From a virus, in the IMG/VR virus record IMGVR_UViG_3300044620_000592, positions 41,670 to 105,669 of that record: DNA of 64,000 bases. One strand, 5' to 3'. A program made the translations under genes and the position numbers. Below the pieces are notes generated by a model. It saw only the letters and a program-made list of their open reading frames with translations. It did not search any database and was not told the DNA's origin. Within the stretch, counting starts at the first letter, position 1. Every line of letters starts with the position of its first letter. Shown piece by piece: positions 5,904 through 61,547 of the stretch.

Positions 5904-5918
5904 TTTTTTTCTCCTAAA

Positions 5919-6113: not shown

Positions 6114-6134
6114 ATCTTATTAGCATACCATACT

Positions 6135-8377: not shown

Positions 8378-8418
8378 TATGCTTTAATTATACAGCATAT
8401 AGGTTTAGTTGGTAAATC

Positions 8419-12956: not shown

Positions 12957-12957
12957 T

Positions 12958-13191: not shown

Positions 13192-13199
13192 TATTACTC

Positions 13200-14723: not shown

Positions 14724-14724
14724 A

Positions 14725-16636: not shown

Positions 16637-16648
16637 TACTTCCTCCTA

Positions 16649-18346: not shown

Positions 18347-18348
18347 CG

Positions 18349-18429
18349 TTAGCAGTCACATTCCTCGCAACCACAATCGCATTGGTCAACACACTCACAA
18401 CCGCAAGCACATGTTTTGTTTCTAGACAT
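18349..18429 (-). CDS. 26-aa Cys-rich metallothionein-like microprotein
   Basis: MSRNKTCACGCECVDQCDCGCEECDC; GGAG SD; fills the gap between neighbours. Confidence 0.7.
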   Translation of the reverse strand: MSRNKTCACGCECVDQCDCGCEECDC

Positions 18430-18441
18430 AGAATCTCCTAA

Positions 18442-18975: not shown

Positions 18976-19175
18976 TATTTACCAGCCTTGACTTTACCAA
19001 ATGCTAAATCATTTGGGTTTACATAGCGTAAAATCACTGGAAGAGCTGCAGCCCAGAGTGCGTTTGCAGCCATCTTTACATCACCGGTTGAAACATAGAC
19101 AGCAACAGCTGCGCCTAAAACACTTCTACCGTAGGAGGCAATCATTGCCTTATTTTCTTCTGAAATCTTAATCAT
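18975..19175 (-). CDS. holin-like membrane protein
   Basis: 66 aa, two hydrophobic helices, basic tail. Confidence 0.6.
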   Translation of the reverse strand: MIKISEENKAMIASYGRSVLGAAVAVYVSTGDVKMAANALWAAALPVILRYVNPNDLAFGKVKAGK

Positions 19176-19225
19176 AAAATTCTCCTTTGCGGCCTAAAAC
19201 CACTTATTTACAGTATACATTAGTC

Positions 19226-19468
19226 TCATTCTTCAGGCTTACTTTTTGCCTTGCTGAATATTGACTCAATTTCATCTTCAGATAACTTTCCGTCATCAAG
19301 AAAGGCATTTGCAAGACCTTCTACGACTTTAGCAACACCGCCAATTCCGGCCATAAAAATAGCCTTTGGCAAGCTAACGCCAGCAACAGCACCAGCGCCA
19401 ATAACGCCAAGACCTGATGCACCGAAAACAGCAAGTATTCTCAATAGGATATTATTTACACTAGACAT
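19226..19468 (-). CDS. small membrane protein
   Basis: Two Gly/Ala hydrophobic helices and a charged C-terminus. Confidence 0.6.
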   Translation of the reverse strand: MSSVNNILLRILAVFGASGLGVIGAGAVAGVSLPKAIFMAGIGGVAKVVEGLANAFLDDGKLSEDEIESIFSKAKSKPEE

Positions 19469-19635
19469 TAATCCTCCTTTTTAATTAATACACCAAACAT
19501 ATGAACAACAAAAGCAGCAACAGTTAGCCACAATCCATAAGTTTGAGTTTTACCAGATAATGTAATTAAAACAATTACACCTCCGGATAATGTCCATGCC
19601 AAAGCATGGAGTTCGTTTAAGATTTTTTTAAACAT
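19468..19635 (-). CDS. 55-aa membrane protein (not in ORF track)
   Basis: MFKKILNELHALAWTLSGGVIVLITL...; stop/start overlaps with both neighbours. Confidence 0.65.
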   Translation of the reverse strand: MFKKILNELHALAWTLSGGVIVLITLSGKTQTYGLWLTVAAFVVHMFGVLIKKED

Positions 19636-34145: not shown

Positions 34146-34571
34146 ATGCTTACAAAAGAACAAGAAAACAATCTCATTTCAAGAATCCCAAAAGGAACGA
34201 TTGAAGAAGATTTGCGTGTTGCCTACTCTGTTATTGCTGGTTTGAGAGATGATAAATCACCAGCACAAGTTTCTGCTTACTACTCAGCTTCAATCGAATC
34301 TGTGAACAAATGGTTCCAGTTCTTTGAGGTTGAAATTCCCGATGGCGCGTCTAAGAAGGGCAAAGGTCGAAAGGGTAAAGACTTGTCGGCCTATATGAAA
34401 AACAATACCGGAAGAGTAATTACTCCAAAAATTGTTGCTGACGAGGTTGGGATATCTTTACCTACTTTTTATAATTATTATAATGCAAATAGGCACTTGT
34501 TTAAAAAAGTAAAAAGAGGAGAGTTCCAAATTGCAGATCCAAAACAAGAAAGAGCGGAGAATAAGAAATGA
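34146..34571 (+). CDS. HTH DNA-binding protein
   Basis: ITPKIVADEVGISLPTFYNYY helix-turn-helix. Confidence 0.65.
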   Translation: MLTKEQENNLISRIPKGTIEEDLRVAYSVIAGLRDDKSPAQVSAYYSASIESVNKWFQFFEVEIPDGASKKGKGRKGKDLSAYMKNNTGRVITPKIVADEVGISLPTFYNYYNANRHLFKKVKRGEFQIADPKQERAENKK

Positions 34572-36153: not shown

Positions 36154-37389
36154 ATGGCTATTAATGTAAATGATATGGAACTACCTTATGTTCCGGCAAA
36201 GATTATTAAATCAGATTTAGATGCATACGATCAATTTCTTATTGGAATTGATGCGCGTGAAAAAAGTTGGATTGCAACAACTAATCTTTCATATATAATT
36301 TTAGATCATGATCATTCTTTTAAAATGTCAAGAGATACAAGATGGCATAATGGCTTATCACTTTTAAGTGATTTAAATCCTCATTTTGATGAAAAAACAA
36401 AAGAAGGTCGAAGAAAAATAATTATAAATCTTGAAGGTAATGACCATCTGAGATTGAAGAGAATTATTGGACCAGTCTTTTCTCCTAAAAATGCAGACTC
36501 ATTAAGGCCAGATATGGAAAAAGCCATTAATGAGATTATTGATGCCGTTATTGAAAGTGGTGAATGTGATTTACAAAAGGATATATTTAATAAATATCCG
36601 TCATATATTATTACAAAAATACTTGGTATTCCAAATTCTGATTGGGAAGAGTTTAGTAGATGGGCTGATATTACATTTAGTACATTTGCAGGCAACTATG
36701 ACCAAGATCCAGAAGAAGTTCGCAATACGCAAAAGAAACTTGATAAGTACACTCAAAATTTAGTATATGAAAAAAGAAACAATCTTGGAAATGACCTTGT
36801 GTCGATGTTAATCACTGCAGAATCCGATGGGGAAAAATTAACCGATTCTGAGATTGTGCATTTAATTCAAGCGGTTTTAATGGGTGGACTTGATACGACA
36901 AAGCATCAGTTAGGTCTTATTTCAATAATGTTAGCAGACCAGCCAGAACTAATTGATATGTTATCTAAAGATATAAATGTTCAAGAAATTATTGAAGAGT
37001 CAATTCGGTTAGATGGTGTATTTAAATATGTGATAAGAGTTGCATCTGAAGATATTGAATATAATGGCGTTTTGTTCCCTAAGGGTACAATTATCTCTCC
37101 AGCATTAATGGTTGGTAATTACGATGAGTCGACATTTAATGATGCTGGAAGCTTTATGGTAGATAGACCAAACAGGAAGGGCGCAACTCTTTCATTCGGA
37201 GCTGGAATTCATTATTGCCTAGGTGCATCTATAGCAAGAGCTCAGATACAAGAAGCTATGAGGGCTATTGCAAAAAGAATGCCGGACTATCAGATCAATG
37301 GGGATGTTGTGTATAAGAAAGCATATGAAGCAGTATGGGGAGCCAGATCCCTCCCTGTTAAATTTACTCCAGGGAATAAAAATGCCTGA
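36154..37389 (+). CDS. cytochrome P450
   Basis: I-helix GGLDTT, ExxR (ESIR), heme motif FGAGIHYCLG. Confidence 0.92.
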   Translation: MAINVNDMELPYVPAKIIKSDLDAYDQFLIGIDAREKSWIATTNLSYIILDHDHSFKMSRDTRWHNGLSLLSDLNPHFDEKTKEGRRKIIINLEGNDHLRLKRIIGPVFSPKNADSLRPDMEKAINEIIDAVIESGECDLQKDIFNKYPSYIITKILGIPNSDWEEFSRWADITFSTFAGNYDQDPEEVRNTQKKLDKYTQNLVYEKRNNLGNDLVSMLITAESDGEKLTDSEIVHLIQAVLMGGLDTTKHQLGLISIMLADQPELIDMLSKDINVQEIIEESIRLDGVFKYVIRVASEDIEYNGVLFPKGTIISPALMVGNYDESTFNDAGSFMVDRPNRKGATLSFGAGIHYCLGASIARAQIQEAMRAIAKRMPDYQINGDVVYKKAYEAVWGARSLPVKFTPGNKNA

Positions 37390-38038
37390 GTTAAATGCAA
37401 ACACACCACCAATTCATTGCTATGTGAGGGGCAACTTTTTGACGAACCAAAAACACAGTCATGATATGAAGTTCCCTGTTGTTATCTTTGGTGTCGCTTC
37501 TATTACAGATAGAGCACCGGTATTTCATTTTCTTATGGAAGATGGCGGAGTTTGGTGGAGAGCGCCAATTAGTGCTTTCTGTATGAGGGAAGATAGCCCT
37601 GTTGTTGATATTCACGATTTAGTGATGTGGAACTGTTTCTCTCCATACATCACTGTCACCACATTTGAGCACATGCGAGGCAGATCAATGACCTATGTGG
37701 ACCGGCATAAAGAAGATGTAAATGGAAAATACCTATTCACTCTAGACTGGCATCATCCGGATAACAATATTGTTGACTCTAATTATTCAATTAACTCAGC
37801 CAATCATAAATGCGGTCATGTGATTGAGCGAGAAGATGGTAACTTTGCTATCCAACCTAACAATCGTGTGCATCTTTGGGATCCTTCACATACAACCAAA
37901 AAAGGTGTTCATCTGATTGACCGTGAAGTAAGTGATTACATCTGGGGAGTTGAAGATGGCTCTAAATGGTTGACATCCGATGATTACGCATATAATTACG
38001 ATGTTCAGAATGTGGAGAATAAAAAAAATGTCAAATGA
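37382..38038 (+). CDS. hypothetical phage protein
   Basis: Start reassigned to MPELNANTP, overlapping the P450 stop. Confidence 0.7.
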   Translation: MPELNANTPPIHCYVRGNFLTNQKHSHDMKFPVVIFGVASITDRAPVFHFLMEDGGVWWRAPISAFCMREDSPVVDIHDLVMWNCFSPYITVTTFEHMRGRSMTYVDRHKEDVNGKYLFTLDWHHPDNNIVDSNYSINSANHKCGHVIEREDGNFAIQPNNRVHLWDPSHTTKKGVHLIDREVSDYIWGVEDGSKWLTSDDYAYNYDVQNVENKKNVK

Positions 38039-38312: not shown

Positions 38313-38384
38313 TCGGAGATTGTGTAATTGGCAGCACAAATGGTTTTGGTCCATTTAGTCAGGGTTCGAGTCCTTGTCTCCGAA
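38313..38384 (+). tRNA. tRNA-Gln(TTG)
   Basis: Acceptor TCGGAGA/TCTCCGA, anticodon stem aatgg/ccatt, GGTTCGAGTCC T arm. Confidence 0.85.
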
Positions 38385-38386
38385 CT

Positions 38387-38599
38387 ATGGAAAATAAAAA
38401 ACAAACAACTTCAGTTACAACCATTCTACTGGTTGTATTTGTAGTATTAAAGTTAACCAATAATATTGACTGGTCATGGTGGTGGGTATTGTCCCCCATC
38501 TGGATTCCAATTGCCTTTATTGCAGTAATTGCAATATCCATTGGGATTCTAATGGCTTTGTTTGGGAGTAGGGAAGTTCATGAGTCTAACGGTAATTGA
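38387..38599 (+). CDS. small membrane protein
   Basis: IDWSWWWVLSPIWIP motif. Confidence 0.7.
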   Translation: MENKKQTTSVTTILLVVFVVLKLTNNIDWSWWWVLSPIWIPIAFIAVIAISIGILMALFGSREVHESNGN

Positions 38600-39152
38600 A
38601 GATTTCATCCTCAAAGATAAACAAGACGAGCTTGAGGCTTATGTAAAGGACTCAAAGTTCCCTTACCGCTTTCATAAGATTCATAACTATGGGGCTGGAG
38701 GCGCAGCTTGGGGAGAAGATCTCCAACTGACCCATCATCTGATGATGTATGGGGAACATGACGTATCTCCACACTTCCCTATCATTGCTCCGTTGTATGA
38801 CACCCTTACAAAATTGTATGGCAGTATCACCTTCTTCAGAGCGAAGGTCAACTGTACCTTCCCTAGCGTCACAATGTCTCCATATGCCCCTCAGGAGCCC
38901 CATGTCGATTTAAAATACGAGGATGGTCGTTCTGTTCCACACCTCGTATGTTTGTATTATATAAATAATGCGGATGGCCCGACATATTTTTATGACGGGA
39001 ATGGTAGAATTACACATAAGATTGAACCCGATAAGGGAACGGCGGTGATTTTTGATGGTAGTATTATGCATGCGGGCAGCAATCCGGTTAACTTCCCTTA
39101 TCGATTCGCTTTTAACATTAATTTTAGGCAAGGTACAAGCGAAAAGCTTTGA
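38580..39152 (+). CDS. 2OG-Fe(II) oxygenase-like protein
   Basis: PHVD...LYYINNADGPT...FDGSIMH...R motifs. Confidence 0.75.
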   Translation: MSLTVIEDFILKDKQDELEAYVKDSKFPYRFHKIHNYGAGGAAWGEDLQLTHHLMMYGEHDVSPHFPIIAPLYDTLTKLYGSITFFRAKVNCTFPSVTMSPYAPQEPHVDLKYEDGRSVPHLVCLYYINNADGPTYFYDGNGRITHKIEPDKGTAVIFDGSIMHAGSNPVNFPYRFAFNINFRQGTSEKL

Positions 39153-40083: not shown

Positions 40084-40113
40084 TTGCGAAGGGGGGGCGG
40101 GGGCGTGTAACCT
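40084..40113 (+). promoter_or_regulatory. sigma70-type promoter, leaderless
   Basis: TTGCGA-18-TAACCT-7-ATG. Confidence 0.65.
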
Positions 40114-40120
40114 TTCAGGT

Positions 40121-40615
40121 ATGGCAACTAAGTCAGTCCCAACCAAGAGCAAGGCGCGCGTCGTGCGCTCTGCCACCCCTACCGTTACCAAGAGCGCCGT
40201 ACTAGCGCATTTGGCAACCGCCCGCACAGCGAACAAGGCGAAAGGCGTGAAAGCCTTTTACACGGGAGCGCAAGCCGATTCCCTCGCCTCTGCCGTTGCC
40301 CGTGCCCACAAGTTCCCCACACTCACCGAGGCGGGTCTTGTGGTCAAGGGTGCAAGCGTTCCCAAGACCGCCCAAGACGGGGCAGACCGCCGAGCCTTTG
40401 CCCGTGCGAACCGTGCCACCCTTGTCAATGTCTCCGACATTCTTGGCGAGAGCAAGAACGGGGAAATTACCCATGACCGCCCTGAGAACACCGTGCGTGT
40501 TCGCTTGGCAAGTATCGCCAAGGCTCTTGGCTTGCCAGCGGACACCTACTACGCCGTAAGGGCGGAGGCATACGCCGAGGGCGAGACCCCAAAGGTCTAC
40601 ATCCTCCGCAAATAG
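40121..40615 (+). CDS. basic Ala/Lys-rich hypothetical protein (paralogue of 41665..42075)
   Basis: High-GC ORF; DRPENTVR...YYAVRAEAYAEGETP shared with 41665. Confidence 0.8.
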   Translation: MATKSVPTKSKARVVRSATPTVTKSAVLAHLATARTANKAKGVKAFYTGAQADSLASAVARAHKFPTLTEAGLVVKGASVPKTAQDGADRRAFARANRATLVNVSDILGESKNGEITHDRPENTVRVRLASIAKALGLPADTYYAVRAEAYAEGETPKVYILRK

Positions 40616-40634
40616 CGGAGGGTGAACCCTCACG

Positions 40635-40665
40635 GGGGCGAGAGTCGCAAGGCTCTCGCCCCTTT
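40635..40665 (+). terminator. intrinsic terminator
   Basis: ggggcgagag/ctctcgcccc followed by TTT. Confidence 0.75.
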
Positions 40666-40700
40666 CCCCTTTTATGGGGAGTGCTGCAAAACTCCAGGAC

Positions 40701-40714
40701 CGAACGTCTGTTCG
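40701..40714. promoter_or_regulatory. LexA (SOS)-box-like palindrome
   Basis: CGAAC-GTCT-GTTCG. Confidence 0.35.
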
Positions 40715-40967
40715 CCCGGCGCGCGGGAGGAGCTTCGCACTTTGATCCCGTGTTAGTGTAACTTTAGACAGGGCGTGTAATTTTAGTACAAAAATCTTTA
40801 TGCCCGTGTAATATTACAGCTGATACCTTTATGGAAACTGTGTAACATTACACACTGTGTAACTCTAGGTATCCGTGTAATATTAGCTCCAGGAAGTTTA
40901 TGAAAAAGATCCGTGTAATCTTAGAAATAGTGTTGTATTCCTCTTAGTAATCCTGTAAGGTAACACT

Positions 40968-41183
40968 ATGAATAATTTCACGATAAGCATTAAAGAGACC
41001 GCCAAGACGATGGAGTTCACCATCACATTCGAGGAGCCTTATCGCACAGACGATAAGTTTGCCGCGAATGGTGCGCGTGTTCGTATTTGGGACTTCATTC
41101 AGAGGAACCGTATCCAGTACAGCCGACACACTAAGACCAAGCGTGTTGATGACTACTCATTCACAATGGGTATTTGGAAGTAG
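40968..41183 (+). CDS. hypothetical protein, leaderless cassette gene
   Basis: TTGTAT-17-TAAGGT-6-ATG; terminator at 41197-41226. Confidence 0.75.
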   Translation: MNNFTISIKETAKTMEFTITFEEPYRTDDKFAANGARVRIWDFIQRNRIQYSRHTKTKRVDDYSFTMGIWK

Positions 41184-41664
41184 GGGGATACACACAGGGA
41201 GGGGGCCGCTTGGCCCCCTTCTTTTTGTCTCCAGCTTCGTGTAACATTACAACCCTGTGTAACATTACAGAACTACCTAGTAGTGCAGGTAGGTGTAACA
41301 TTACAAAACTCTCAAATTGTAGTATGCGCTACAAATCGTGTGTGTAACATTACACAAGGTACCTTTATGGGATTGCTCACGCGGGTGGAGCTCCCCAGTT
41401 TCACGTAGGAGACGCACCCGCGAGAGAATAAGGTAGTTTCTACCATAATTGAGTATGAAATTGTAATCGGGCTTGTAATATTACAAGTCTTTCCGTTATT
41501 CAATTCCCTACTACATTCGCTAGGTAAAGTCAAGTCATTATGGGCATTTTCCCAGCTGGATTTTTTCTAGATTATTTTCCCTAAATGCGTAACTTTACAC
41601 AGTTTGTCGGGTAGTATTTTCTTGTTGGCAATTCCGCCAACTTGTCCCGAAAGGTAGTGCCGAA

Positions 41665-42075
41665 ATGTCTAAGCGTCATCAAGCACAATGGAAGAAGCGC
41701 AAGGCTTCTTATCTCAAGCAAATAGCCGAAGCCAATAAGGTGAACGCTAGTCGGGGAGTAAAGCAATTTTACTTTTCCGATGACCTAATCAACCTCATCG
41801 TTGATGCCGATTTTGCGCCAGTTATGCCAGTTGATATGTTGGGTCGTTCATTCGTTCAGGGTGAGGCTAGGCGTTCATTCTGTATTGAAATTGACGCTAT
41901 GCCAGTTGAGGTTGAGAACGCTACCCGAAAGGCTACGACCGACCGACCCGAAAATGCAGTTCGGGCTAATCTGTTGAGTTTCATGAAACTCATCGGAAAG
42001 AATGAGTATTACGCCATTCGGGGAGAGTCGTACCGTGAGGGTGAGATTCCGCCAGTTTGGGTTGTTCGGGTCTAG
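41665..42075 (+). CDS. hypothetical protein (paralogue of 40121..40615)
   Basis: DRPENAVR...YYAIRGESYREGEIP; SD GAAAGG; terminator at 42093-42117. Confidence 0.8.
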   Translation: MSKRHQAQWKKRKASYLKQIAEANKVNASRGVKQFYFSDDLINLIVDADFAPVMPVDMLGRSFVQGEARRSFCIEIDAMPVEVENATRKATTDRPENAVRANLLSFMKLIGKNEYYAIRGESYREGEIPPVWVVRV

Positions 42076-42327
42076 TCCCCGAACACTTACGGAAGCCCCC
42101 CGAAAGGGGGGCTTTTTCGTTTCCCCAAAAAAGGCCGGTACCTTGTAAAGTTACACCCAGTGTAATATTACAAAAAGAACCTTTATGTGGAGTGTGTAAT
42201 TTTACGAGAAATAACTTTATGGAAGGCTAAAACTTTTTTCGTGTAATATTTGGGAAATGCTTGCAATTGCTTTTCCAGCTGGTAGTATTTCTAATACAAG
42301 GCAATAGCCCATAGAGAAAGATAAGAA

Positions 42328-42618
42328 ATGAAAGTTCAAGAATTACAGACACCAAATCTTGTAGAGTTGGTAATGCCATATGAGATGTATAGATTTCTTC
42401 TTTACTGCATGGCTACCTATGAAAATCCAAAAGACACCGACATGAAGCAGGTCTACAAGAATTGCTGGGAGTTTGCAGAGTCTCTCGGTGCAGAGTCACC
42501 CCATCACTTCATTTCAGAGAATGATGGTTTCATGAAACTTTACCACCACCAGCTGGTAGTGCTTAGAGGACAGGCAGAAGCACAAGCCGAAAAGGTTGCA
42601 AAGGTAATCAAAAAGTAG
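42328..42618 (+). CDS. hypothetical cassette gene
   Basis: SD GAAAG; hairpin at 42626-42647. Confidence 0.75.
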   Translation: MKVQELQTPNLVELVMPYEMYRFLLYCMATYENPKDTDMKQVYKNCWEFAESLGAESPHHFISENDGFMKLYHHQLVVLRGQAEAQAEKVAKVIKK

Positions 42619-42917
42619 TAGGGAAGGTAGAGAGGAAACTCTCTACCGGCCTGCAATTGTGTAATATTACAAACCTGTGTAATATTACATGCCGTTGCTT
42701 TATGGCGGGCAGGTGTAATGCCTTGTTTTATCAAACATTACACCTGCTGTAACATTACACGAAGCTGGATGAAATAGAGTGTGTAATTTAAGACTGTGTA
42801 ACTTTATGGGATCGTGTAACATTAGCCAATTGCATTATGGAACTAATCCAAAAAATATTTCCTGGAATATTAGAAATTGACTTGCATAGCTTGTGTAATA
42901 TTTGTATCCTTACAGGT

Positions 42918-43163
42918 ATGAGTTACACACAACTTTCACGCCCATACCGCCTAGAGTTCAAGCCCCGTATGCAGACAATTTTTGCTCGCATGATTGTCTG
43001 TAACAATTGCCGACCTGCTGGCGAGAAATTGCTGGCTGGTCATATGTTCTTCGGCGCTCTCAGCGTCAAGCACCTTGACCGCTTCGCAGATGTCAAGTGC
43101 GACTTCTGCGAGAACGAAATCTGCAAGGAGCCTGCTCCCTGCAAGTGCCACCGCTGCAAATAG
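42918..43163 (+). CDS. Cys-rich zinc-finger-like protein, leaderless
   Basis: TTGCAT-17-TATCCT-7-ATG; CNNC, CDFC, CKCHRC motifs. Confidence 0.75.
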   Translation: MSYTQLSRPYRLEFKPRMQTIFARMIVCNNCRPAGEKLLAGHMFFGALSVKHLDRFADVKCDFCENEICKEPAPCKCHRCK

Positions 43164-43392
43164 CGGGGCTAAAGTTACAGGGAGTGCCCTCCCTCCCTGT
43201 AACACTTCCAGGGCCATGTAATGTTACACACCAGTTGTAATATTACGCGAAGCTGGATAGATTTGAGTGTGTAAGTTTACACACCGGGTAAGGTCTGATC
43301 GTGTAACATTAGCCCCCGGGCTTTATGGAAATTTTTTCTGTAACATTAGAAATAGAGTTGTTCTTTGTGTTTGGTTCTGTTAGGATTTCCTC

Positions 43393-43734
43393 ATGACCTA
43401 CTCACCTAAGCCCTATCAGACCACTTCTGCGCTTCAAGCCGACCACAAGTATTTCCGTACTTTGGTCATGCTTGGAGACATTACTATCTCATCAGAAGGC
43501 ATCATAGATATGACCGTCAATGATGCACCTACTAGCATCTACTCTTTCCTTCATAATGAGGTAGAAGAAAAGTTGTTCAATGTCTATGACACTTACTGCC
43601 TTGGCGGTTATGAAGATGAGACACTCGCAATGATTCAGCGCAAAGAATTAAAGATGTCAATGGTTGAGTTTTACACTCGCCAAATCCGTTACGCAATGGA
43701 TGAGATTTATGACGAACTAGTGAAGAGGGGGTAG
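43393..43734 (+). CDS. hypothetical cassette gene, leaderless
   Basis: TTGTTC-17-TAGGAT-6-ATG; hairpin at about 43745-43778. Confidence 0.8.
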   Translation: MTYSPKPYQTTSALQADHKYFRTLVMLGDITISSEGIIDMTVNDAPTSIYSFLHNEVEEKLFNVYDTYCLGGYEDETLAMIQRKELKMSMVEFYTRQIRYAMDEIYDELVKRG

Positions 43735-44004
43735 AATTACACGGAGAGTCCCCTAGTATTACACTAGGGGATTTCTCCCCCGGCTTTGTGTAACATTACA
43801 TACCTAATCTTACAGGCGGGCGTAAGTCGCTTCACCACAGCTATTACGCCCGCAGTAATATTACACGGAGCTGGATGGATTTGAGTGTGTAAGTTAAGAT
43901 CGTGTAACTTTATGTAGTTGTATTATGCAATCTATTAAAAAATATCTTTGTGTAATATTTGGAAATGCTTGACGGAGCTAATGTTACACATTACAGTGGT
44001 ACAC

Positions 44005-44220
44005 ATGAAGTCAGCGATAGCAACCGAAAAGTTACACAAAATCTGCACCGACAGCACCAACTGCCAGTGCCCTATTATTACAGAGGACAAGGCTTGTTCT
44101 ATTGTTACACTCATTAACGAGTTTGTAACTGAAACAAATCCCGTAGCAATTACCTTTGACAAGGCAGAAGATTACGACAAGTTCCTCGCTTATATTACAC
44201 TAGCAAGTTTGAGGGGGTGA
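44005..44220 (+). CDS. hypothetical cassette gene, leaderless
   Basis: TTGACG-17-TACAGT-7-ATG (MKSAIATEK). Confidence 0.7.
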   Translation: MKSAIATEKLHKICTDSTNCQCPIITEDKACSIVTLINEFVTETNPVAITFDKAEDYDKFLAYITLASLRG

Positions 44221-44228
44221 AAAATTAC

Positions 44229-44372
44229 ATGAGTACAGATGAAATCGTTTTGTTCTTTTCCGTCTTTGGATTCCTTTGCGGATATGGCACTTGCGCCTTT
44301 GGAAATGCATTGGCTAAAGCTACACCGGTCAAAAATTACAGACCTTACGACTGGGCGATAGACGGGGAGTAA
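44229..44372 (+). CDS. 47-aa membrane peptide (not in ORF track)
   Basis: MSTDEIVLFFSVFGFLCGYGTCAFG...PYDWAIDGE; SD GAGGGGG; terminator at about 44396-44432. Confidence 0.6.
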   Translation: MSTDEIVLFFSVFGFLCGYGTCAFGNALAKATPVKNYRPYDWAIDGE

Positions 44373-44578
44373 AATTACAGATCTCCCAAAAGTTACACGG
44401 TTCCTAATGTTACAGGGGCCGTGTTTCTTTTTGTCCCGGAACTGTAATATTACGCACCTTGTAATATTACATAGATGTCCGGAAAATGCAGTAGATAATT
44501 GTTTGCTGTAATATTAGGAAATGGTTGTTTTGGCCTTGGCTATTTGGTAGTGTTTCATTTATGAAAGGAGGTAGTCAT

Positions 44579-44704
44579 ATGAAGCTTGCAGTGCTTTACC
44601 CGAACGGGTACAAGTCTCCAATTTCGGAGGAGCAGGTCGCGAAGCACGGGCTGCGAGTAGGAATGCTCACACCGTTCACGCGCTTGCCAATCGTGGAACT
44701 CTAG
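44579..44704 (+). CDS. 41-aa hypothetical protein (not in ORF track)
   Basis: Promoter TTGTTT-17-TAGTGT, SD AAAGGAGGT, MKLAVLYPNGYKSPISEEQV...; hairpin at about 44717-44750. Confidence 0.7.
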   Translation: MKLAVLYPNGYKSPISEEQVAKHGLRVGMLTPFTRLPIVEL

Positions 44705-45075
44705 AGTTACACGGTGAGAACGGGGAGGGTCGAATGACCCTCCCCTATTCTTACAGAGCACTGTGTAACATTACAAGGGCGGGCGTAAGGTTCACACTCT
44801 TGTAACCTTACGCCCGCGTGTAAGATTACACCATGCGAGTAGATTTTAGTATGTGATTGTAATATTACATAGCCTGGCTTTATGGCGTGTAATTTTAGAA
44901 CTGATCGTGTAACTTTAGGTAAGCTATGTAACATTAGATAAAACTCTGTAACTTTACCTGTAACAATAGGAAATAGCCTATCTGTTCACTTACTGTTCAC
45001 CTAGATTCCACCTTCTGTTTACCTTGGGCTGTTATCTTGGTAAATGTCAAGGGGAAGCACCTCCGAGACACCAAA

Positions 45076-45091
45076 TGTTTCACGTGAAACA
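45076..45091. promoter_or_regulatory. parS: canonical parS centromere site
   Basis: TGTTTCACGTGAAACA, perfect match to the widespread bacterial parS consensus. Confidence 0.8.
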
Positions 45092-45116
45092 TTGGTCAAG
45101 CCGAAAGGTAGTCATA

Positions 45117-45413
45117 ATGGAATTCGAGTTTATCGATGAGAACGAAATCGAGGCAGTACGCCGAGGTCGTAAGTCAAATGTCTCAGCCGAACTGGTTGAA
45201 GCATTCCGCACAATGCCCAAGGGCAAGGCAGTCAAGGTCAAGGGTCTCAGCGTAGACCCGAAGTCGGAAGACTTCAAGAATGACAAGGCTACCGCCTCCG
45301 CTACCATCCGTACCGCAGGTCGCTTGGCAGGCGTGAAGGTCTCCATCTCATGGAGCCCCGAAGGTATCCCTCAGGTGACCACCAAGGTCGCCAAGGCTGC
45401 AAAAGTCAAGTAG
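45117..45413 (+). CDS. small basic protein with RGR motif, paralogue 1
   Basis: MEFEFIDENEIEAVRRGRKS...; SD GAAAGG. Confidence 0.85.
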   Translation: MEFEFIDENEIEAVRRGRKSNVSAELVEAFRTMPKGKAVKVKGLSVDPKSEDFKNDKATASATIRTAGRLAGVKVSISWSPEGIPQVTTKVAKAAKVK

Positions 45414-45422
45414 CCCAAGTTC

Positions 45423-45546
45423 GCTTGGAGGGGTCGGGACACCCCTCCAAGCACAGGGGCTGAAGTAGGTGCATGGTGCATGGGGAGACCCCATGACAGC
45501 GGTTAGGATGTTTCCGCCATGAAACACACTTACCTCAGTCCCCTGT
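45423..45546 (+). ncRNA. candidate structured RNA
   Basis: Hairpin gcttggagggg/cccctccaagc, then a long stem acagggg-ctgaagtaggtg/cacttacctcagtcccctgt enclosing two helices. Confidence 0.45.
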
Positions 45547-46027
45547 CCCCCCAGGATCTGTGTAATATTACAGACTGTGTAATATTACGAGCGGGTGTAA
45601 TTTTACTTACCTGTGAAAATTACACCCGTGCAAATTGTGTAATATTACAGGGTATTTTTAGTGTGCGTTTGTAATATTACAGTACCCCTGGAGCTACGCT
45701 CGATCGTGTAACTTTAGAAGCTGTGTAACATTAGCCGTGTAACTTTATGCGCGTGTAATACTAGACCGATCGTGTAACATTAGAAGCTTGCACACTACAA
45801 CCAACTTTTTTAATTATTTGGGTTGTTGGTGAGGAAATGCGAAATATGGCGATATCGTTCTACTTGTCAGATTGACACTCGGTTAGGTTCGGGGTTAGGC
45901 GGGGCGCAAGCCCCTAGCAATTTCCCCCCCTAATGGTTCTGATAGACATGAGTGATGGATAGTAAGTAACACTATCGTTCCGAAAGTTACACTCGTACAA
46001 TTTATTACACGAAAGGCAGTAACCATT

Positions 46028-46324
46028 ATGGACTTTGAGTTCATTGACGAAAACGAGATTGAGAGCGTTAAGCGTGGTCGCAAGTCCAACGCTAGCCCCG
46101 AACTCGTAAAGGCACTATCAGAGGTTCCAGCAGGCAAGGTTGTAAAAATTACAGCAATGTCAGTTGACCCAGCCTCTGAGGACTTTAAGAACGACAAGGC
46201 AACAATGTCGGCAAGCATTCGCACGGCTGGCAAGTTGGCAGGCGTAAAGGTTTCCATTTCATGGAGTCCAGCAGGCGTTCCACAAGTCAAAGTGTCTAAG
46301 CCTAAGGCTAAGGCTGGCAAGTAA
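46028..46324 (+). CDS. small basic protein with RGR motif, paralogue 2
   Basis: MDFEFIDENEIESVKRGRKS...; terminator at 46352-46390. Confidence 0.85.
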   Translation: MDFEFIDENEIESVKRGRKSNASPELVKALSEVPAGKVVKITAMSVDPASEDFKNDKATMSASIRTAGKLAGVKVSISWSPAGVPQVKVSKPKAKAGK

Positions 46325-46796
46325 TCGCTGGGTCTAATTGACCTACCGATAGGAACAACCCCCGTGAGTGTTCTTCACGGGGGTTGTTCTGCGTACCCAT
46401 GAAAGTCCGGCCGGAGGAAGATCTATTATTACACGACACCTAATATTACAGAGGTTCTATTATTACACCGGATCTAAAATTACAGAGCTCCAGGAATCCA
46501 GCTTGTGTAATATTACAGCCAGCACCTTTATGTAATATTACATAGCTCGATGGGTGTAAGTTGATATCCCCCGTCAACTTACACCCATGTAATATTACAG
46601 AGAATTCTATTAGATTATAATATATATTATGAATTAGATTAAGCTTTATCTAATCTATAACTTTATGTAACCTTTATGTGTAACATTACACGCATCTTTA
46701 TGTGGTGTAATGTTACAACCTGGTACAATAAAAAAACGGATCAGTTTCCTGACCCGTTTCTTTAACTTTTGGAATGAGTATTGTTTTATTTAATTC

Positions 46797-47150
46797 TTAA
46801 GCGATTTTCTTAAGAAATGGGACATTATTTACATCCCAAATAATGCCAACTTTTGCCCAACCTGAAGCTTTTGCCTGAGAGCGAAGAATTGCTGAATTCT
46901 TTGCTTTGGCATTTTTCTTCTCTTCAAGTGTAACAATTTCGTTATCCAATGCGAACATTGGAACACGAACAGTTTGCCCAACTTTTGCTTTACTCAAAAA
47001 AGCAACCAATTCAGGAACAACATGAGCCTTACGCCCACGCTTTACTGATTCAATTTCTTCTTCATTAATGAACTCAAATTGCATGTTCATTTCCTTCTCA
47101 TTTTCTTCTGGATTTTCTTCAGGATTTCCTGAAGTATTTTTTGAAGCCAT
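46797..47150 (-). CDS. small basic protein with RGR motif, paralogue 3 (inverted)
   Basis: QFEFINEEEIESVKRGRKA...; own promoter (TAAGGT) and terminator at about 46729-46763. Confidence 0.8.
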   Translation of the reverse strand: MASKNTSGNPEENPEENEKEMNMQFEFINEEEIESVKRGRKAHVVPELVAFLSKAKVGQTVRVPMFALDNEIVTLEEKKNAKAKNSAILRSQAKASGWAKVGIIWDVNNVPFLKKIA

Positions 47151-47585
47151 TTTCTTACTCTTTCTTTTATTTAATTAACTCATTCCTTGAGTCAATGTCC
47201 ACCTTACCGCCTAAACGTAGCAACAACAACCTATCCAAAAAATTAACAATTAAAAACTTAATTACCGAGCTTATTCTTCATCCATTTTCCGATCTGTTGT
47301 TTTAGCAGCTAGCGGGGGTTGTGTAATATTACGTTAGTGTAATATTACAAAATACTCAAATTATAGTGTGTAATATTACGTTGATCACCTTTATGGAGAT
47401 CTAAAAGATTATCTAATTTATTATCTAATCTTTTATTGCCTGGTACCTTTATGGGAGCTCATTTAATTCCCCTAAAGAAACATTATTCCTAAGGTTGGTA
47501 ATCTAATTATCAGACGGTAGGATATTTATAGGCTGACATTTAGCCGAAAAACCAAATCTATTTCCTAACGTGAAAGATAATCCAA

Positions 47586-48047
47586 ATGACCACCGAACCA
47601 ATTGACGAAATGTTTATTGCAATCCATAGTCTTACATTATGTATTGAAGTAGAAATTACTACAACAGAACATTTCCTTAAAACTGAAATTGAATATTCAA
47701 AAATTAATGGATATCAAACACAGATCAATTTCCTAACCCGATTTAGCGAGATATTCGATAAAGTTATCTCTAAGCCTTTCTATGAGAAAGTCTTTATTCC
47801 AAATATGGAAGAAAAAATGGATGCCGATACAATGGATTTCCTTTTTAGCTATAGCTATCTTAAGAATTTCTTTAAGGAATTCCATAAGGCTAACATTCTT
47901 CTAACAAAACACTTTAAGGATGCCTATACCCTAAGCGAAGTCAATAACGATATTCGTAACGCTTATCCAGGTATTGGTCATAATCCCGAACTCTTCCCTC
48001 ATCAGGAACTAATTCAATATCTAGGTTCAATGGGTAAAGGGAAGTAA
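47586..48047 (+). CDS. hypothetical protein
   Basis: 153 aa with SD GAAAG. Confidence 0.7.
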   Translation: MTTEPIDEMFIAIHSLTLCIEVEITTTEHFLKTEIEYSKINGYQTQINFLTRFSEIFDKVISKPFYEKVFIPNMEEKMDADTMDFLFSYSYLKNFFKEFHKANILLTKHFKDAYTLSEVNNDIRNAYPGIGHNPELFPHQELIQYLGSMGKGK

Positions 48048-48052
48048 AAACA

Positions 48053-48538
48053 ATGTCAAACTTTGAAACAATATTCAATAATCCAGAAAAAGCAATGGCT
48101 ATCATTTTTCATATGACTAATAGCCATGAAATAGCTGCTCAAACCATTACCGATATTCATAAAGGTATTCTTAAGGCAACTGAAATTGTTAACCAAACTT
48201 CTAACTTTCTCGAAAAGTTAAATTTTATGAAGATTCCTCAGACAATGATTGATAATCTTGAAAAGGCTAATAATGCACGTGATTCTTTTGCTAATATCCT
48301 AGAGAATCTAAAAGCTGAAAGGATAGATTATGATAAATACATCATGGAAATCTATTCCTTAACTCTTGAGCTTTGCATAATTGGTCAACAAATTACTGCT
48401 GTTTTTGGTAATACTGATGAATTCGGAATTGACCATTTATTTCCTAATCGTGAATCTTTCTTCAAAGAGATATACGATCTATTTACCGAGCTTTCATTTC
48501 AGTCAAAAGACGTAGTTCAAGAATACGCTAGTCTTTAG
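48053..48538 (+). CDS. hypothetical helical protein
   Basis: 161 aa; terminator at 48553-48581. Confidence 0.7.
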   Translation: MSNFETIFNNPEKAMAIIFHMTNSHEIAAQTITDIHKGILKATEIVNQTSNFLEKLNFMKIPQTMIDNLEKANNARDSFANILENLKAERIDYDKYIMEIYSLTLELCIIGQQITAVFGNTDEFGIDHLFPNRESFFKEIYDLFTELSFQSKDVVQEYASL

Positions 48539-49842
48539 CCAATTCTTTAGAGAAAGGGGCAGGTTTTCCTGCCCCTTTTTTCATGCCTGCAATCATGTGT
48601 AACATTACACCAATTGTAATATTACAGGAACCCTGCTGGAATAGAGTGTGTAATATTACACCGCTATTCTTTATGGAAATCAAATCCAAATACTAATGTT
48701 TATCCAAATCCTAACATCCGGCCAACTTTATGGCGGGCAATAGGCTTACCTAATATGGGATCTAAAGTCCGGGTCTATTCAGAACCTAATTAACTACCTA
48801 TAGATAGGTATTACATCATTGTAATTCCCATATTTAGCACCTCAAAACGCACACTAAAATTCTCACAAATAAAAACGACGTTATTTATGAGTATTTTACT
48901 GTCTTTTTGATTGATTTAATAGACAATTAGTCTATTTATTACTTATTTTATAACATTTATCTATCTTTATGGGGGGTACAAATAACCGAAATTATGGCTA
49001 TTGGGGGGTTTATATAGATATATATCCCTATAGATAGGAGAATACATAGATAGGTCTACACCAGTTTATTAATAAGATCTGTACCTTTATTTAGAACGCT
49101 TTACAGCATCATTAATAGATTTGGACCCTTCTGAGAATCTATTCCTTGGTACTTCGCTGAATACCTTAAAGGAATCTATTCATCTATCTATATCTTATCC
49201 CTATGAATACTTCTATCTATACTTCTTCTAGAGGTATATCTTAGTTATAACCCGGAAATCAGGGTTTATTCGTAGAATACTTCTACTCCGATTCGCAATC
49301 ATGACCGTAATACCATTCATTAGCCTCTTCTTCATCCAATAGATCAAACAATCTATCGCATTCCGGGCATTCCATCTTTGTTTTAACCTTCATATCTTTT
49401 CCTTATCCTATGACCATAAACAATAGGTCAAATAAGACCCAACAGATAGACACAACCATCATCAAAGGCAATAGAAAGGCTGAAACCGTATCCATCTCCT
49501 TATATGAATCAACCGAATTCCTATCCATCTTCCAAAGTGCATATAGCAATACCACTCCCAATATATTCAAAATAATCATTCCATACCCTTTCGTATGTTT
49601 ATGCATGATCCCGTATGGATATGCATTTCCTTGTATTCACATATAGTATCTTTTGGCCACTTTTGCCAATCCATACCAATATCAAAAGCCCCCTCCTAAT
49701 CTCTCCTCATTGGCTACTGAATAGCTTTCTAAGGGTCTTAAAGATTAGAAAAGGGCAATCACATAGCCCATTTTCTTTTTTACAATATTGAATGGTATTA
49801 GAAATAATCCTAAGTACAATTAATATTAAGTATTAGGGTTAT

Positions 49843-54331: not shown

Positions 54332-54429
54332 TTTTTTTATTCCTATCTTTCTTTATGGGGTGATATAAAAAGAGACCAGCTATAAATGCCCCGATTTTCC
54401 CTAAACGACATTTATAACTGATCTCTTAG

Positions 54430-54502
54430 CGCTTTCAGTAAGATTCGAACTTACAACCTACTGATTAGAAGTCAGTTGCTCTATCCATTGAGCTATGAAA
54501 GC
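54430..54502 (-). tRNA. tRNA-Arg(TCT)
   Basis: Cloverleaf GCTTTCA...ctgacTTCTAAtcag...TGAAAGC. Confidence 0.85.
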
Positions 54503-54579
54503 ATAAAGGTATATTAGTTATTTTTATTCACACATATACCAGATGCGATGTTTTGAGGTAATAACTTAACCTCGTTCCT

Positions 54580-55101
54580 TTACACTTTAAAACCCCAGTT
54601 ACTAAATCCACCACCATGATATAGAAGGTATTTAGCAACTTTTATATTGCATTTTTCTTTAAGGAGAACTGTCATATCTCCCCAACGCTTTCCGCAAACT
54701 ATCTGCGTTACCGTTGTCCAAGATGAATTTATTTGCAATAAGCCTGAGTCATAAGAATCAACAGCACTACATCTTTTATAGACATTAGCAGCTGATACTT
54801 TACAATTTTTGTGTGACTTACCTTTCTTATAATTCCAACCAATTGCTTTTGGTTGACATCTTGACTCTCTCCACATAATGTAAGAGAATATTTGTACAGG
54901 TAATCCTTCATCTTTAATCATTTGATTATATTGAGGACATCTGTACTCTTCACCTTTCGGTATTTTTTGTTTAACTATCGAGATTTGTCTCTTTAGCTCT
55001 TTGTCACTTAATTCTTTAGCCTGTACGGGGAGTGAAGTAACAACACTTCCCAGACTTAATATCAATGTGATTGATAATAATCGTTTTATAAACCTAGACA
55101 T
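54580..55101 (-). CDS. secreted lytic transglycosylase (SLT/Rpf-like)
   Basis: Signal peptide; IMWRESRC, DSGLLQIN, NIKVAKYL motifs. Confidence 0.75.
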   Translation of the reverse strand: MSRFIKRLLSITLILSLGSVVTSLPVQAKELSDKELKRQISIVKQKIPKGEEYRCPQYNQMIKDEGLPVQIFSYIMWRESRCQPKAIGWNYKKGKSHKNCKVSAANVYKRCSAVDSYDSGLLQINSSWTTVTQIVCGKRWGDMTVLLKEKCNIKVAKYLLYHGGGFSNWGFKV

Positions 55102-55297
55102 ATTTCGCTCCTTTAGTTGTTGGGTTTACGATTTCTGTAAAACAGATAAACGCATTAGCATTTGCTAAGGTGTGCGAAACGAGGTCGTAGCATATTTATC
55201 TACATTCAATGCTCACTCGCTTCACTATTAATTGTCAATAAGCACCACCTCCTCTAAAAAATGGATAAATACAATTATATCACTTAATGTCATATAG

Positions 55298-55371
55298 TAC
55301 CGAATATGGGAATTGAACCCATTCAGGAAACTTATAAGATTTCTTCCGTCAAACCGTTCGGACCATTCGGC
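55298..55371 (-). tRNA. tRNA-Ile(TAT)
   Basis: Acceptor GCCGAAT/ATTCGGT, anticodon loop CTTATAA, GGTTCAATTCC. Confidence 0.7.
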
Positions 55372-55383
55372 TCATTTGGTTAA

Positions 55384-55767
55384 TTAAAAATCATCATCTT
55401 CATTATACAGCTCTTCTAACTCTTTTACCGTTGATAAGATCTGCTCTAATACTTCTCTTGCTCTGTGTACATTCAGCAATGGATTATCCATAAGATGTTC
55501 CCTGGCTAAAGCATAATCCATTGCGTAATCAGAAAGTAATTTTTCAAGAGGTACATCTGTACCAACAGATACTAATCTAAATATCTGACCTAGATGGTAC
55601 ATAAGGCCGTATATTAATCCCGGCATAAACATTTCATCTATGTTCTTGCCATCTTTTTTGAATGATTCAAGGATATATTCCATTGAACTTAAATCATCAC
55701 TTATGTATGATGAAAACATCTGCAATGCATAATCTGTATACAGATCGTTTTTGTTACTCATCTTCAT
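55384..55767 (-). CDS. hypothetical protein
   Basis: 127 aa with SD. Confidence 0.65.
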   Translation of the reverse strand: MKMSNKNDLYTDYALQMFSSYISDDLSSMEYILESFKKDGKNIDEMFMPGLIYGLMYHLGQIFRLVSVGTDVPLEKLLSDYAMDYALAREHLMDNPLLNVHRAREVLEQILSTVKELEELYNEDDDF

Positions 55768-55789
55768 CTCCTTTCTTTTATTTTTTTAG

Positions 55790-55862
55790 TAGGGGCTATG
55801 GGATTCGAACCCATGACCAATAGATTAAAAGTCTACTGCTCTACCAACTGAGCTAAACCCCC
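55790..55862 (-). tRNA. tRNA-Lys(TTT)
   Basis: TAGCTCAGTTGGTAGAGC D arm, CTTTTAA loop, GGTTCGAATCCC. Confidence 0.9.
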
Positions 55863-55872
55863 ATCTTTTGAG

Positions 55873-56451
55873 TTATTGCTTTTCTAACTCAAGAGCTTTT
55901 GCTTTAGCGCGTTCCTTTTCCCATTGAATTTGCCAATTCTTGGAAAAAGTATCAGCCTGAGACAATTCTCCAAACTTATATTCTTCTCCATCATCATACT
56001 GAATCTGAACAGAACCTTGTTGCTTGAGCATTTTACCATCTGTAAATAGGAATCGATAGTAGTCTTCATTTTCTTCACCTTTGAATTCAATGTAACTTCC
56101 ATCTTTTACATAACCAGCAAAGCACTGCAAGAAGTAATCTTCATTGCCGGTCTTATTGCTATAGATAATGTTAGTCATATTACCATCGTTGTCAAACTCA
56201 CAGTCAAAGTCTAAAGCAGCAAGGATGCTAATCATATCCTTACAAGTTTCTGGATAGTTATGTTCCATCCAAGAGAACCATTTGTTTCTAGGATATCTAT
56301 CACCTTCAACTTGATCATTATTTGTACCGTATGAACCACCACGTTTTAAATCGTGATAGTCATTCAATTCGCACATCTTCTTGTAAACATCTTCAAAATG
56401 TTTTTTATCAAGAAAAAACTGTACTTCAGTTGTATTTACATAATAACCCAT
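55873..56451 (-). CDS. hypothetical phage protein
   Basis: 192 aa; MGYY...GSYIEFKGE pattern. Confidence 0.7.
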   Translation of the reverse strand: MGYYVNTTEVQFFLDKKHFEDVYKKMCELNDYHDLKRGGSYGTNNDQVEGDRYPRNKWFSWMEHNYPETCKDMISILAALDFDCEFDNDGNMTNIIYSNKTGNEDYFLQCFAGYVKDGSYIEFKGEENEDYYRFLFTDGKMLKQQGSVQIQYDDGEEYKFGELSQADTFSKNWQIQWEKERAKAKALELEKQ

Positions 56452-56481
56452 TGGGTTCCTTTCTTTTGTTATTTATAACAG

Positions 56482-56565
56482 TAGGGATAATGGGACTCGA
56501 ACCCATACAATATTACTATTGGAAAGTTTTAAGCCTTCTGCGTCTGCCAATTCCGCCATATCCCC
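56482..56565 (-). tRNA. tRNA-Leu(TAA)
   Basis: GGCGGAATTGGCAGACGC D arm, CTTAAAA loop, long variable arm. Confidence 0.85.
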
Positions 56566-61250: not shown

Positions 61251-61547
61251 TTAAACTTTGTTGTTGTCATTTACTTTTACCGTTGTAATAGATACGTCTC
61301 TAGCAGTAACTGTTTGAGTTCGCAAAAGTTTAATTCTTTCCTTTGGGGTGAGTCCTCCCCAAACCCCAAAGGCTTCATCATTCTTTAGTGCATACTCAAG
61401 GCATTCACTTTTAACTGTGCAAATATTGCAGAATGCTTTTACATCATTCGCTTGCTTTACAGCACCCTTTGTGCCAGGTTCAGGGTAAAACAATTCTGTA
61501 TCTTGTCCTAAACATGCAGCATTTAAACGCCAATTTTCATTACTCAT
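61251..61547 (-). CDS. whiB: WhiB family transcription factor
   Basis: WRLNAAC...FYP...C..C.V...C...GVWGG. Confidence 0.92.
   Translation of the reverse strand: MSNENWRLNAACLGQDTELFYPEPGTKGAVKQANDVKAFCNICTVKSECLEYALKNDEAFGVWGGLTPKERIKLLRTQTVTARDVSITTVKVNDNNKV

Follow-up and report, generated by a model that had tools for sequence, protein, structure and literature searches.

A 12-bp box stacked in intergenic spacers delimits the cassettes of a hypervariable gene array in an uncultured, probably actinobacterial phage

The genome of the uncultured phage recorded as IMGVR_UViG_3300044620_000592 carries an 8.6-kb array of small gene cassettes whose spacers are filled with copies of one 12-bp box. 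The stretch analyzed, designated the window, comprises 64,000 nucleotides (positions 41,670 to 105,669 of the record) and makes up the final 64 kb of a viral record of 105,669 bp rated complete by CheckV; positions given below are those of the window unless marked as genome positions. The array is composed of 12 transcription units (g1, g2, g3, g4, g5, g6, g7+g7b, g8, g9, g10, g11 on the minus strand, and g12+g13), each of which contains one or two small orphan genes. We favor, with moderate confidence, the reading that this array is a hyperplastic early-gene region in which the boxes serve both as operators for a phage regulator and as recombination hotspots.

Exact copies of the palindrome TGTAAYATTACA gave 44 strand matches (approximately 31 sites), all located between 40807 and 48660, against an expectation of 0.05 for the window in dinucleotide shuffles. 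No further exact match was found elsewhere in the complete 105,669-bp genome. A position weight matrix was generated from the boxes, and 75 of the 77 sites that scored at least 14 bits, as well as 88 of 96 at 12 bits or more, fell within 40.0-48.8 kb. Counting by the half-sites TGTAA and TTACA identified approximately 94 boxes in the spacers, with 3 to 13 per spacer. An initial annotation of this DNA had counted more than 60 boxes by eye, with no such clusters noticed in the other 55 kb, and this confinement to the array was borne out over the full genome. Its spacer length of 150-450 bp was corrected to 213-614 bp. The first box cluster begins at 40757, and a single box, at 40106, lies before g1.

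All boxes represent a single 12-bp motif, gTGTAAYWTTA[C/G]R. The earlier description of the boxes as palindromic applies to approximately one-third of them, which are perfect palindromes (<>); in the other two-thirds the second half is weak (TTAG), which gives these boxes an orientation, either forward (>>) or reverse (<<). When flipped, the consensus of the reverse class is the consensus of the forward class. In most spacers, << boxes follow the stop codon or terminator, palindromes occupy the middle, and >> boxes extend up to the promoter (-35), such that every cassette is bracketed in the form >> promoter-gene-terminator <<. Some << boxes build the terminator stem itself. The distance between neighboring boxes is most often 17 bp (11 times), 18 bp (7 times) or 19 bp (5 times), with a harmonic at 34-37 bp, which agrees with the pairs 17-19 bp apart noticed initially; in relatives the pitch is 16 bp. 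A literature search for the box returned incidental matches, among which the sole regulatory one was an 18-bp gammaproteobacterial pentose-phosphate motif. Outside the array, strong boxes are limited to two of the << type at genome positions 4517 and 4543 (G000:C1:4517-4560), 26 bp apart and approximately 110 bp past the stop codon of a glycosyltransferase-like gene. This pair was considered as a pointer to the regulator and rejected, as it lies 3' of the stop codon of an unrelated gene.

The element CTTTATGG, of which 19 copies are on the plus strand and one on the minus strand within 40.0-48.8 kb (40800-48730), is typically located 8 nt past a palindromic box. Its ATG often starts a mini-open reading frame (ORF) of 1-13 codons that is closed by the TAA of the next box. 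The block GCTGGAT...GAGTGTGTAA, reported earlier near 42765, 43252 and 43870, was confirmed at 42764, 43252 and 43870 and has an additional copy at 48635. Eight >> boxes (40908-45768) are directly preceded by GATC (GATCGTGTAAC), and the phage has a Dam-type methylase. The adjacency was examined as a conserved feature and rejected: 8 of the 18 GATCs in this array abut a box, compared to 0-4 in relatives, and it is therefore probably a by-product of duplicated spacer modules. GATC is scarce genome-wide, with 181 occurrences outside the array where 330 were expected.

At the level of sequence, each of the 12 units has a sigma-A-like promoter. Six promoters, all on the plus strand, are phase-locked to a box in the composite arrangement box, 6-7 nt, TTGnnn, 16-17 nt, TAnnnT, and this composite was found 0 times on the reverse strand and 0 times in 200 shuffles. 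Hairpins with a folding free energy (dG) of -20 to -37 kcal/mol, located 0-27 nt from the stop codon, are present at 12 of the 12 unit ends, several of them without a long U-tract. The proposal of about 12 mini-transcription units was thus upheld. In g2, g5, g6 and g7, the ATG is 6-7 nt past the -10, which predicts leaderless mRNAs and on this reading places the start of g5 at 42918 (not 42837) and that of g7 at 44005. The g7 coding sequence also holds five TTACA-type half-boxes (44025, 44071, 44098, 44188 and 44218); either this gene has been invaded by boxes or the g7 ORF is spurious.

The cargo is as heterogeneous as first described. GC content ranges from 0.61 (g1) down to 0.31 (g13), and the two paralogue families with one inverted copy correspond to the A-family (g1 and g3) and the RGR family (g9, g10 and the inverted g11). 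Ten cargo proteins were scanned, and none had a PHROG match or a credible Pfam match; two gave E values of approximately 0.09, far under the cut-off. Megablast of the array against GenBank phages gave no match, and an Rfam search over the array gave nothing above the gathering score.

Six related viral contigs carry the same type of array in the same genomic slot. These relatives were reached by two independent routes that converged, a paired-box scan of viral contigs and a search with the RGR protein for its relatives. Scanning viral contigs for single boxes lacked selectivity, with at least 119 chance matches, and the paired-box pattern was used instead. In the five relatives with whole records, the boxes lie in one block of 4-6 kb, and a reversed control pattern gave 0 matches everywhere. 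The exceptions are single stray sites in relatives G002 and G003 and, in the complete relative G001, a second cluster of three boxes (G001:C1:79351-79423) approximately 20 kb from the main array. TGTAAYATTACA is absent from a more distant clade (clade II), whose RGR proteins are approximately 48% identical; there, the corresponding slot of the genome is occupied by 17-18 boxes of the TGTAAGTTTAC type. The clade II variant, TGTAAG(W)TTACA, is arranged in the same << <> >> order at a 16-bp pitch, which indicates that the half-site is kept across a broad lineage and that the center of the box drifts. In one orthologous spacer that has not been exchanged (the terminal one, 48539..48700), three-way identity is 75% in the boxes and 40% in the rest.

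The related contigs are permuted relative to one another. The flanks of the array are syntenic with those of G002 and G003 (45-87% amino-acid identity), and the cargo differs. Across seven arrays, 96 ORFs were grouped into 57 families, of which 42 are singletons, and RGR is the sole family present in seven of seven. Three gain, loss or swap events were mapped, and all three have their junctions within a palindromic box. The first involves the g8 cassette (window 44440-44869, plus strand), which is 95.6% identical to G003, whereas everything else is at most 78% identical. In the alignment, identity starts at box 44443 and stops right after box 44858-44869. This cassette has been exchanged recently. 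The other two events were mapped between G002 and G003, which are 90-93% identical and collinear. The g8 cassette is inserted in G003, flanked by a direct repeat of approximately 24 bp that ends in a box and is single-copy in G002. A cassette of approximately 830 bp with a g13-like gene is present in G002 and missing from G003, with ccattTGTAATATTACA-type sequence on both sides that is single-copy in G003. The initial suggestion of a modular region shuffled by recombination between spacers is supported directly by the syntenic flanks, the hypervariable cargo and these three junctions, and the comparison it had proposed, of cassette gain, loss and reordering in relatives with breakpoints in the spacers, gave a positive outcome.

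The phage is siphovirus-like and probably lytic. The nearest isolates to its portal protein are Streptomyces siphoviruses (44% identity). A WhiB-like transcription factor is encoded at 61254-61547 on the minus strand (PF02467, E=8e-22); it has the Cys4 and GVWGG core and is without an AT-hook tail. WhiB, the portal similar to those of Streptomyces phages, and the leaderless starts together argue that the host is probably an actinobacterium, and the phage GC content of 33-45% suggests a low-GC one. WhiB is the main clue to the host, and homologues were found in 209 of 401 sampled Actinomycetota genomes, though without taxon labels that would narrow down the host. Both this sample and the 301-genome sample used below take in unpublished genomes (G274, G088, G342, G154, G349, G232, G180, G007, G094, G024, G126, G245, G054 and G397), from which no individual result was used, only aggregate counts.

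The polarity, tight pitch and conservation of the boxes and their restriction to spacers point to a protein-binding DNA function rather than passive repeats, and the preferred reading, plausible on sequence features, is that they form an operator array. Among the 301 sampled Actinomycetota genomes, no host regulon was evident: GTGTAAYATTACA gave 3 single matches compared to 2 for the control pattern. Paired boxes were also tried as a route to the bacterial host or a prophage and rejected, as they gave 13 isolated pairs in unrelated taxa and no clue. The lack of a host regulon and the isolated, scattered occurrence of box pairs lean toward a phage-encoded binder.

Under the operator-array reading, the sigma-A-type promoters of the cassettes would be fired by host RNA polymerase as infection begins. 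A protein made by the phage would then bind the palindromic boxes as a dimer, spread over the weak flanking sites, and regulate all cassette promoters together, most likely by shutting them off after the early phase. Since the same box lies between all cassettes and in the relatives, it would also supply short homology, and RecA/RuvC-type recombination of the phage at the boxes could delete, insert or swap cassettes during co-infection. The array may have an early role in host takeover, as was first suggested. A bolder version, which is speculative and in our estimate unlikely, holds that one phage protein (RGR or the protein encoded at 34146) coats the approximately 90 boxes, switches the dozen promoters, and synapses palindromes to promote cassette excision and insertion. 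The array would then be a recombinase-independent or novel-recombinase analogue of an integron, in lytic actinophages of which metagenomes hold many.

The RGR family and the 34146 protein are candidates for the box binder. RGR proteins are present in 2-3 copies in most arrays examined, with R16-G17-R18 invariant, and at least 307 protein clusters were found, all annotated as hypothetical and on contigs of up to 110 kb. Tblastn of RGR against GenBank phages gave no match, nor did RGR match Pfam or PHROG or have named neighbors in the protein atlas. An AlphaFold2 (AF2) model of g10 was obtained with a predicted local distance difference test score (pLDDT) of 77.7, and several of its sub-noise structural matches are winged-helix domains. 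The gene for the 34146 protein is located upstream of the array in G002-G005 and in G407, the one clade II genome that was searched for it, and is present in G001 too; it was not found in G408, a 30%-complete fragment. The helix ISLPTFYN(Y/F)YNANR is invariant in this protein. The C-terminal H-H-H-beta-beta unit of its model gave weak local Foldseek matches, mostly to winged helix-turn-helix (HTH) regulators.

Several points weigh against the reading of the boxes as phage-controlled operators and recombination hotspots. The recombination events examined were only three. Strict phasing between box and promoter is common only in this genome, with 0-1 cases per relative, and may reflect duplicated promoter modules, not functional constraint. 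The pitch of 16-19 bp is without helical phasing, which is unusual for cooperative activators or repressors, and many boxes lie 3' of genes and within terminator stems, where a role in initiation is not obvious. Neither of the candidate binders has a significant match to a known DNA-binding family. Foldseek of the RGR model against the PDB gave nothing at E<=0.001 (all E>=0.1), and the best Z in a VIA wide search, 5.6 (RepE), is under the noise level of that tool. For the 34146 protein, Pfam returned HTH_23 below threshold (E=0.023) and Foldseek gave E>=0.03. The genome sample may miss the true host lineage, so the binder may be encoded by the host. The early timing and lytic lifestyle are themselves inferred.

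A host-encoded binder forms the basis of the likeliest alternative, although we consider it distinctly unlikely. Here the boxes would be bound by a host nucleoid-associated protein or transcription factor, and the array would boost early transcription or titrate the factor away from host DNA. Approximately 90 packed AT-rich sites would be an effective sink, early promoters must fire ahead of any phage protein, and the proximal box lies at about -54 to -43, the position of UP elements and class I activators. However, the 301 sampled Actinomycetota genomes showed no excess of boxes, the pairs in bacterial genomes were isolated and in unrelated taxa, and the difference in central box bases between the clades fits a co-evolving phage protein better.

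The mapped junctions bear on a second alternative, to which we assign a slim chance, that a dedicated system of site-specific recombination or transposition acts at the boxes (integron- or transposon-like capture) and that any effect on regulation is secondary. Cassettes bracketed as >> gene << would be moved by a specialized, still unrecognized enzyme. That all three junctions fall inside palindromic boxes agrees with such a system, as do the inverted boxes on either side of the cassettes, which resemble multi-site transposon ends, and the box itself, which begins with TG, ends with CA, and keeps its palindromic core across clades. Yet six-frame family searches of the complete genome found no tyrosine integrase (PF00589; controls positive in 14 of 14), no serine recombinase or resolvase, and no rve-type transposase, whereas RecA and RuvC are encoded. 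Identity at the junctions extends 5-12 bp past the box, and once over an 82-bp overlap, as expected for homology-driven exchange, and up to 13 boxes per spacer is far above the need of a recombination site.

It is quite improbable, in our view, that the boxes are promoter elements, recognized by the carboxy-terminal domain of the RNA polymerase alpha subunit (alpha-CTD), a WhiB-sigma-A complex, or an unrecognized phage sigma factor, and that the spacers are stacks of tandem promoters. AT-rich boxes do lie directly upstream of the -35 in six promoters, the phage has WhiB, and WhiB-type factors act at sigma-A region 4 beside AT-rich DNA. The boxes, however, are present in both orientations, many are 3' of genes or within terminators, and within a run, phasing to a -35 and -10 is confined to the last box. 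The phage WhiB has no AT-hook tail, sigma-70 region 2 was not found in the complete genome by six-frame family search, and a scan with a sigma-70-type consensus gave 11 promoter-like sites compared to 23 in shuffles. The last alternative, raised in the initial annotation, is an iteron-type replication origin, copy-control region or partition centromere, for which we see hardly any chance: dense direct and inverted copies of a short site do recall iterons plus operators, and the best structural neighbors of RGR include the iteron-binding initiators RepE and Pi, but these matches are under the stated noise level of the tool, the twelve clusters are interleaved with genes over 8 kb instead of forming one or two, the 16-19 bp pitch differs from the usual two helical turns, and Pfam scans of approximately 100 proteins (not every ORF) identified no Rep, ParA or ParB family.

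Among known systems, the promoter-early stem-loops (PeSLs) of T4-type phages are functionally closest to the array. A PeSL is a repeated intergenic element in which an early promoter of sigma-70-like type, preceded by AT-rich DNA, is combined with a stem-loop terminator; PeSLs are concentrated in hyperplastic regions upstream of ORFans, where recombination between them gives indels and replacements among close relatives (Arbiol et al. 2010, PMC2839356; Comeau et al. 2014, PMC4122927). Encapsidated mini-circles are a further trait of the PeSL type. The present array likewise has sigma-70-like promoters with AT-rich upstream DNA (at the sequence level, in the six composites), a stable stem-loop at 12 of 12 unit ends, hyperplastic ORFan cargo (42 of 57 families singleton) between syntenic flanks, and three indel or replacement events that end in repeated modules. 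In contrast to the T4-type myoviruses of Gram-negatives in which PeSLs are found, however, this phage is a siphovirus-like actinophage. The repeat at its junctions is a separate 12-bp box and not a promoter or stem-loop, its cassettes all lie in one contiguous block, and 3-13 boxes per spacer in << <> >> order, with approximately 90 in 8 kb, are without a PeSL counterpart. The array had been called undescribed. This stands for the motif and the phage lineage, given that the literature search gave no match and RGR has no GenBank-phage homologue, but not for the concept, which PeSLs anticipate.

Cluster O mycobacteriophages also contain tens of short dyad-symmetric repeats. These are 17 bp long, lie mostly between genes and become denser toward one end of the genome. 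Scattered genome-wide and mostly single, they have no known function but are predicted to bind a dimeric protein, and they are reported to have no link to promoters and few if any occurrences in rearrangements (Cresawn et al. 2015, PMC4351075). The boxes described here, in contrast, are stacked in one block, partly phased to promoters, and at recombination junctions. The stoperators of Cluster A phages, as outlined in the same paper, are many short asymmetric sites oriented with transcription through which one phage repressor silences transcription, and are single sites distributed genome-wide in temperate phages with an immunity repressor and an integrase or partition system (PMC4351075). Set beside that outline, the array shares the many copies of a short oriented site in an actinophage. 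It differs in that 75 of 77 sites are confined to one 8.8-kb block and that both orientations occur in most spacers around a palindromic core. Six-frame searches identified no integrase or resolvase in the genome, and a repressor may be among the candidate DNA binders, which have no family assignment.

The terminal-redundancy module of SPO1 and the pre-early region of T5 hold many small genes of unknown function in short operons with strong host-type promoters and terminators. The array resembles such host-takeover modules in being a compact block of small genes, each short unit with its own promoter and terminator; to our knowledge, no dense shared operator box is present in SPO1- or T5-type modules. 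Integrons are similar in that they are linear arrays of small unrelated mobile cassettes with imperfect palindromic sites at which gain and loss occur. Unlike integrons, the array is without an IntI-type integrase (PF00589 absent in six frames), has 3-13 sites of 12 bp per spacer instead of one attC of 57-141 bp per cassette, and has cassettes with their own promoter and terminator, whereas integron cassettes are promoterless.

Modular shuffling mediated by regulatory cassettes has so far been documented for T4-type myoviruses, and the array extends it to large actinophages of an unrelated lineage. This lineage is widespread in metagenomes, with at least 307 RGR clusters, and has none in GenBank phage records. 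A single operator-like 12-bp box that is stacked approximately 90 times, ordered, polar, and marks cassette junctions to the base is without a described counterpart. The array brings together dozens of orphan genes that presumably share one regulatory logic, which makes it a well-defined place to seek host-takeover or anti-defense functions in phages whose uncultured hosts are probably low-GC aquatic actinobacteria. Such regions can be located in metagenomes simply by the sequence of the box, and the array would, if a single protein coats all of it, constitute a compact natural multi-promoter switch.

Table 1. Units and spacers of the cassette array and the candidate trans factor, in window coordinates.
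Feature	Position	Strand	Description
34146 protein	34146..34571	+	candidate trans factor, 141 aa, basic; C-terminal winged-HTH-like domain, GRGRK arm
g1	40121..40615	+	164 aa, A-family paralogue, GC 0.61, pI 10.3; box 40106 abuts start
spacer 1	40616..40967		hairpin terminator, approximately 8 boxes, composite promoter (box 40914, TTGTAT-17-TAAGGT); g2 ATG 6 nt past -10
g2	40968..41183	+	71 aa orphan, only in this phage among those compared
spacer 2	41184..41664		terminator, approximately 7 boxes, four perfect TGTAACATTACA
g3	41665..42075	+	136 aa, A-family paralogue, 35% identical to g1
spacer 3	42076..42327		terminator, 4 boxes, composite promoter (box 42242, TTGCAA-16-TAGTAT)
g4	42328..42618	+	96 aa orphan; homologues 57-61% identical in G002 and G003
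spacer 4	42619..42917		terminator, approximately 10 boxes, GAGTGTGTAA block 42764, composite promoter TTGCAT-17-TATCCT; g5 ATG 7 nt on
g5	42918..43163	+	approximately 81 aa, Cys-rich orphan
spacer 5	43164..43392		terminator with box-pair stem, 7 boxes, block 43252, composite promoter TTGTTC-17-TAGGAT (g6 predicted leaderless)
g6	43393..43734	+	113 aa orphan
spacer 6	43735..44004		terminator, approximately 10 boxes, block 43870, composite promoter TTGACG-17-TACAGT (g7 predicted leaderless)
g7 + g7b	44005..44361	+	g7 71 aa (start 44005), g7b 40 aa
g8	44579..44704	+	41 aa, with Shine-Dalgarno; promoter TTGTTT-17-TAGTGT behind box 44507
spacer 8	44705..45116		terminator, 11 boxes, including five >> at 12-20 bp pitch (44888-44959)
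g9	45117..45413	+	98 aa, RGR-family paralogue
spacer 9	45414..46027		terminator, 13 boxes (five consecutive >>, 45707-45773), then long leader
g10	46028..46324	+	98 aa, RGR-family paralogue, 71% identical to g9, invariant RGR motif
spacer 10	46325..46796		terminator, four << at exact 17-bp pitch (46422-46473), palindromes, bidirectional terminator
g11	46797..47150	-	117 aa, inverted RGR-family paralogue, GC 0.36
spacer 11	47151..47585		3 boxes and two CTTTATGG elements
g12 + g13	47586..48538	+	153 aa and 161 aa, AT-rich orphans, GC 0.31-0.33
terminal spacer	48539..48700		terminator, 3 palindromic boxes, block 48635

Located just past the array, between convergent blocks of plus- and minus-strand genes, is a stretch without ORFs (48700-49400) that is approximately 75% identical to G002 and G003. 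One segment in it, AATCCAAATCCTAACATCC..CTTTATGGCGGGGCAATAGG, is highly conserved, and CTATAGATAGG-like repeats occur several times; an origin, a packaging site and a small RNA are possible identities of this stretch. The virion genes (portal, head protease and major head protein) are on the minus strand in the left 30 kb of the window, in a block shared with metabolic genes that include ribonucleotide reductase (RNR) and a tryptophan halogenase. A replication and recombination block at genome positions 600-19600 (G000:C1:600-19600) encodes RecA, RuvC, a C5 cytosine methylase and the Dam-type methylase, together with several glycosyltransferases and methyltransferases.

Auxiliary genes that are unusual for a phage are located at 36154-37389, 37298-38038 and 38580-39152 on the plus strand and at 9460-10920 on the minus strand. 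The set comprises a cytochrome P450 (PF00067, E=2e-26), a ferredoxin-type PHROG, two 2-oxoglutarate (2OG)-Fe(II) oxygenases, and a tryptophan-halogenase-like protein (E=3e-105), and suggests that the phage encodes chemistry for modifying small molecules or nucleotides. Five tRNA genes (Gln, Arg-TCT, Ile-TAT, Lys and Leu-TAA) were identified at 38313-38385 and within 54429-56565, and these serve mostly A/T-ending codons.

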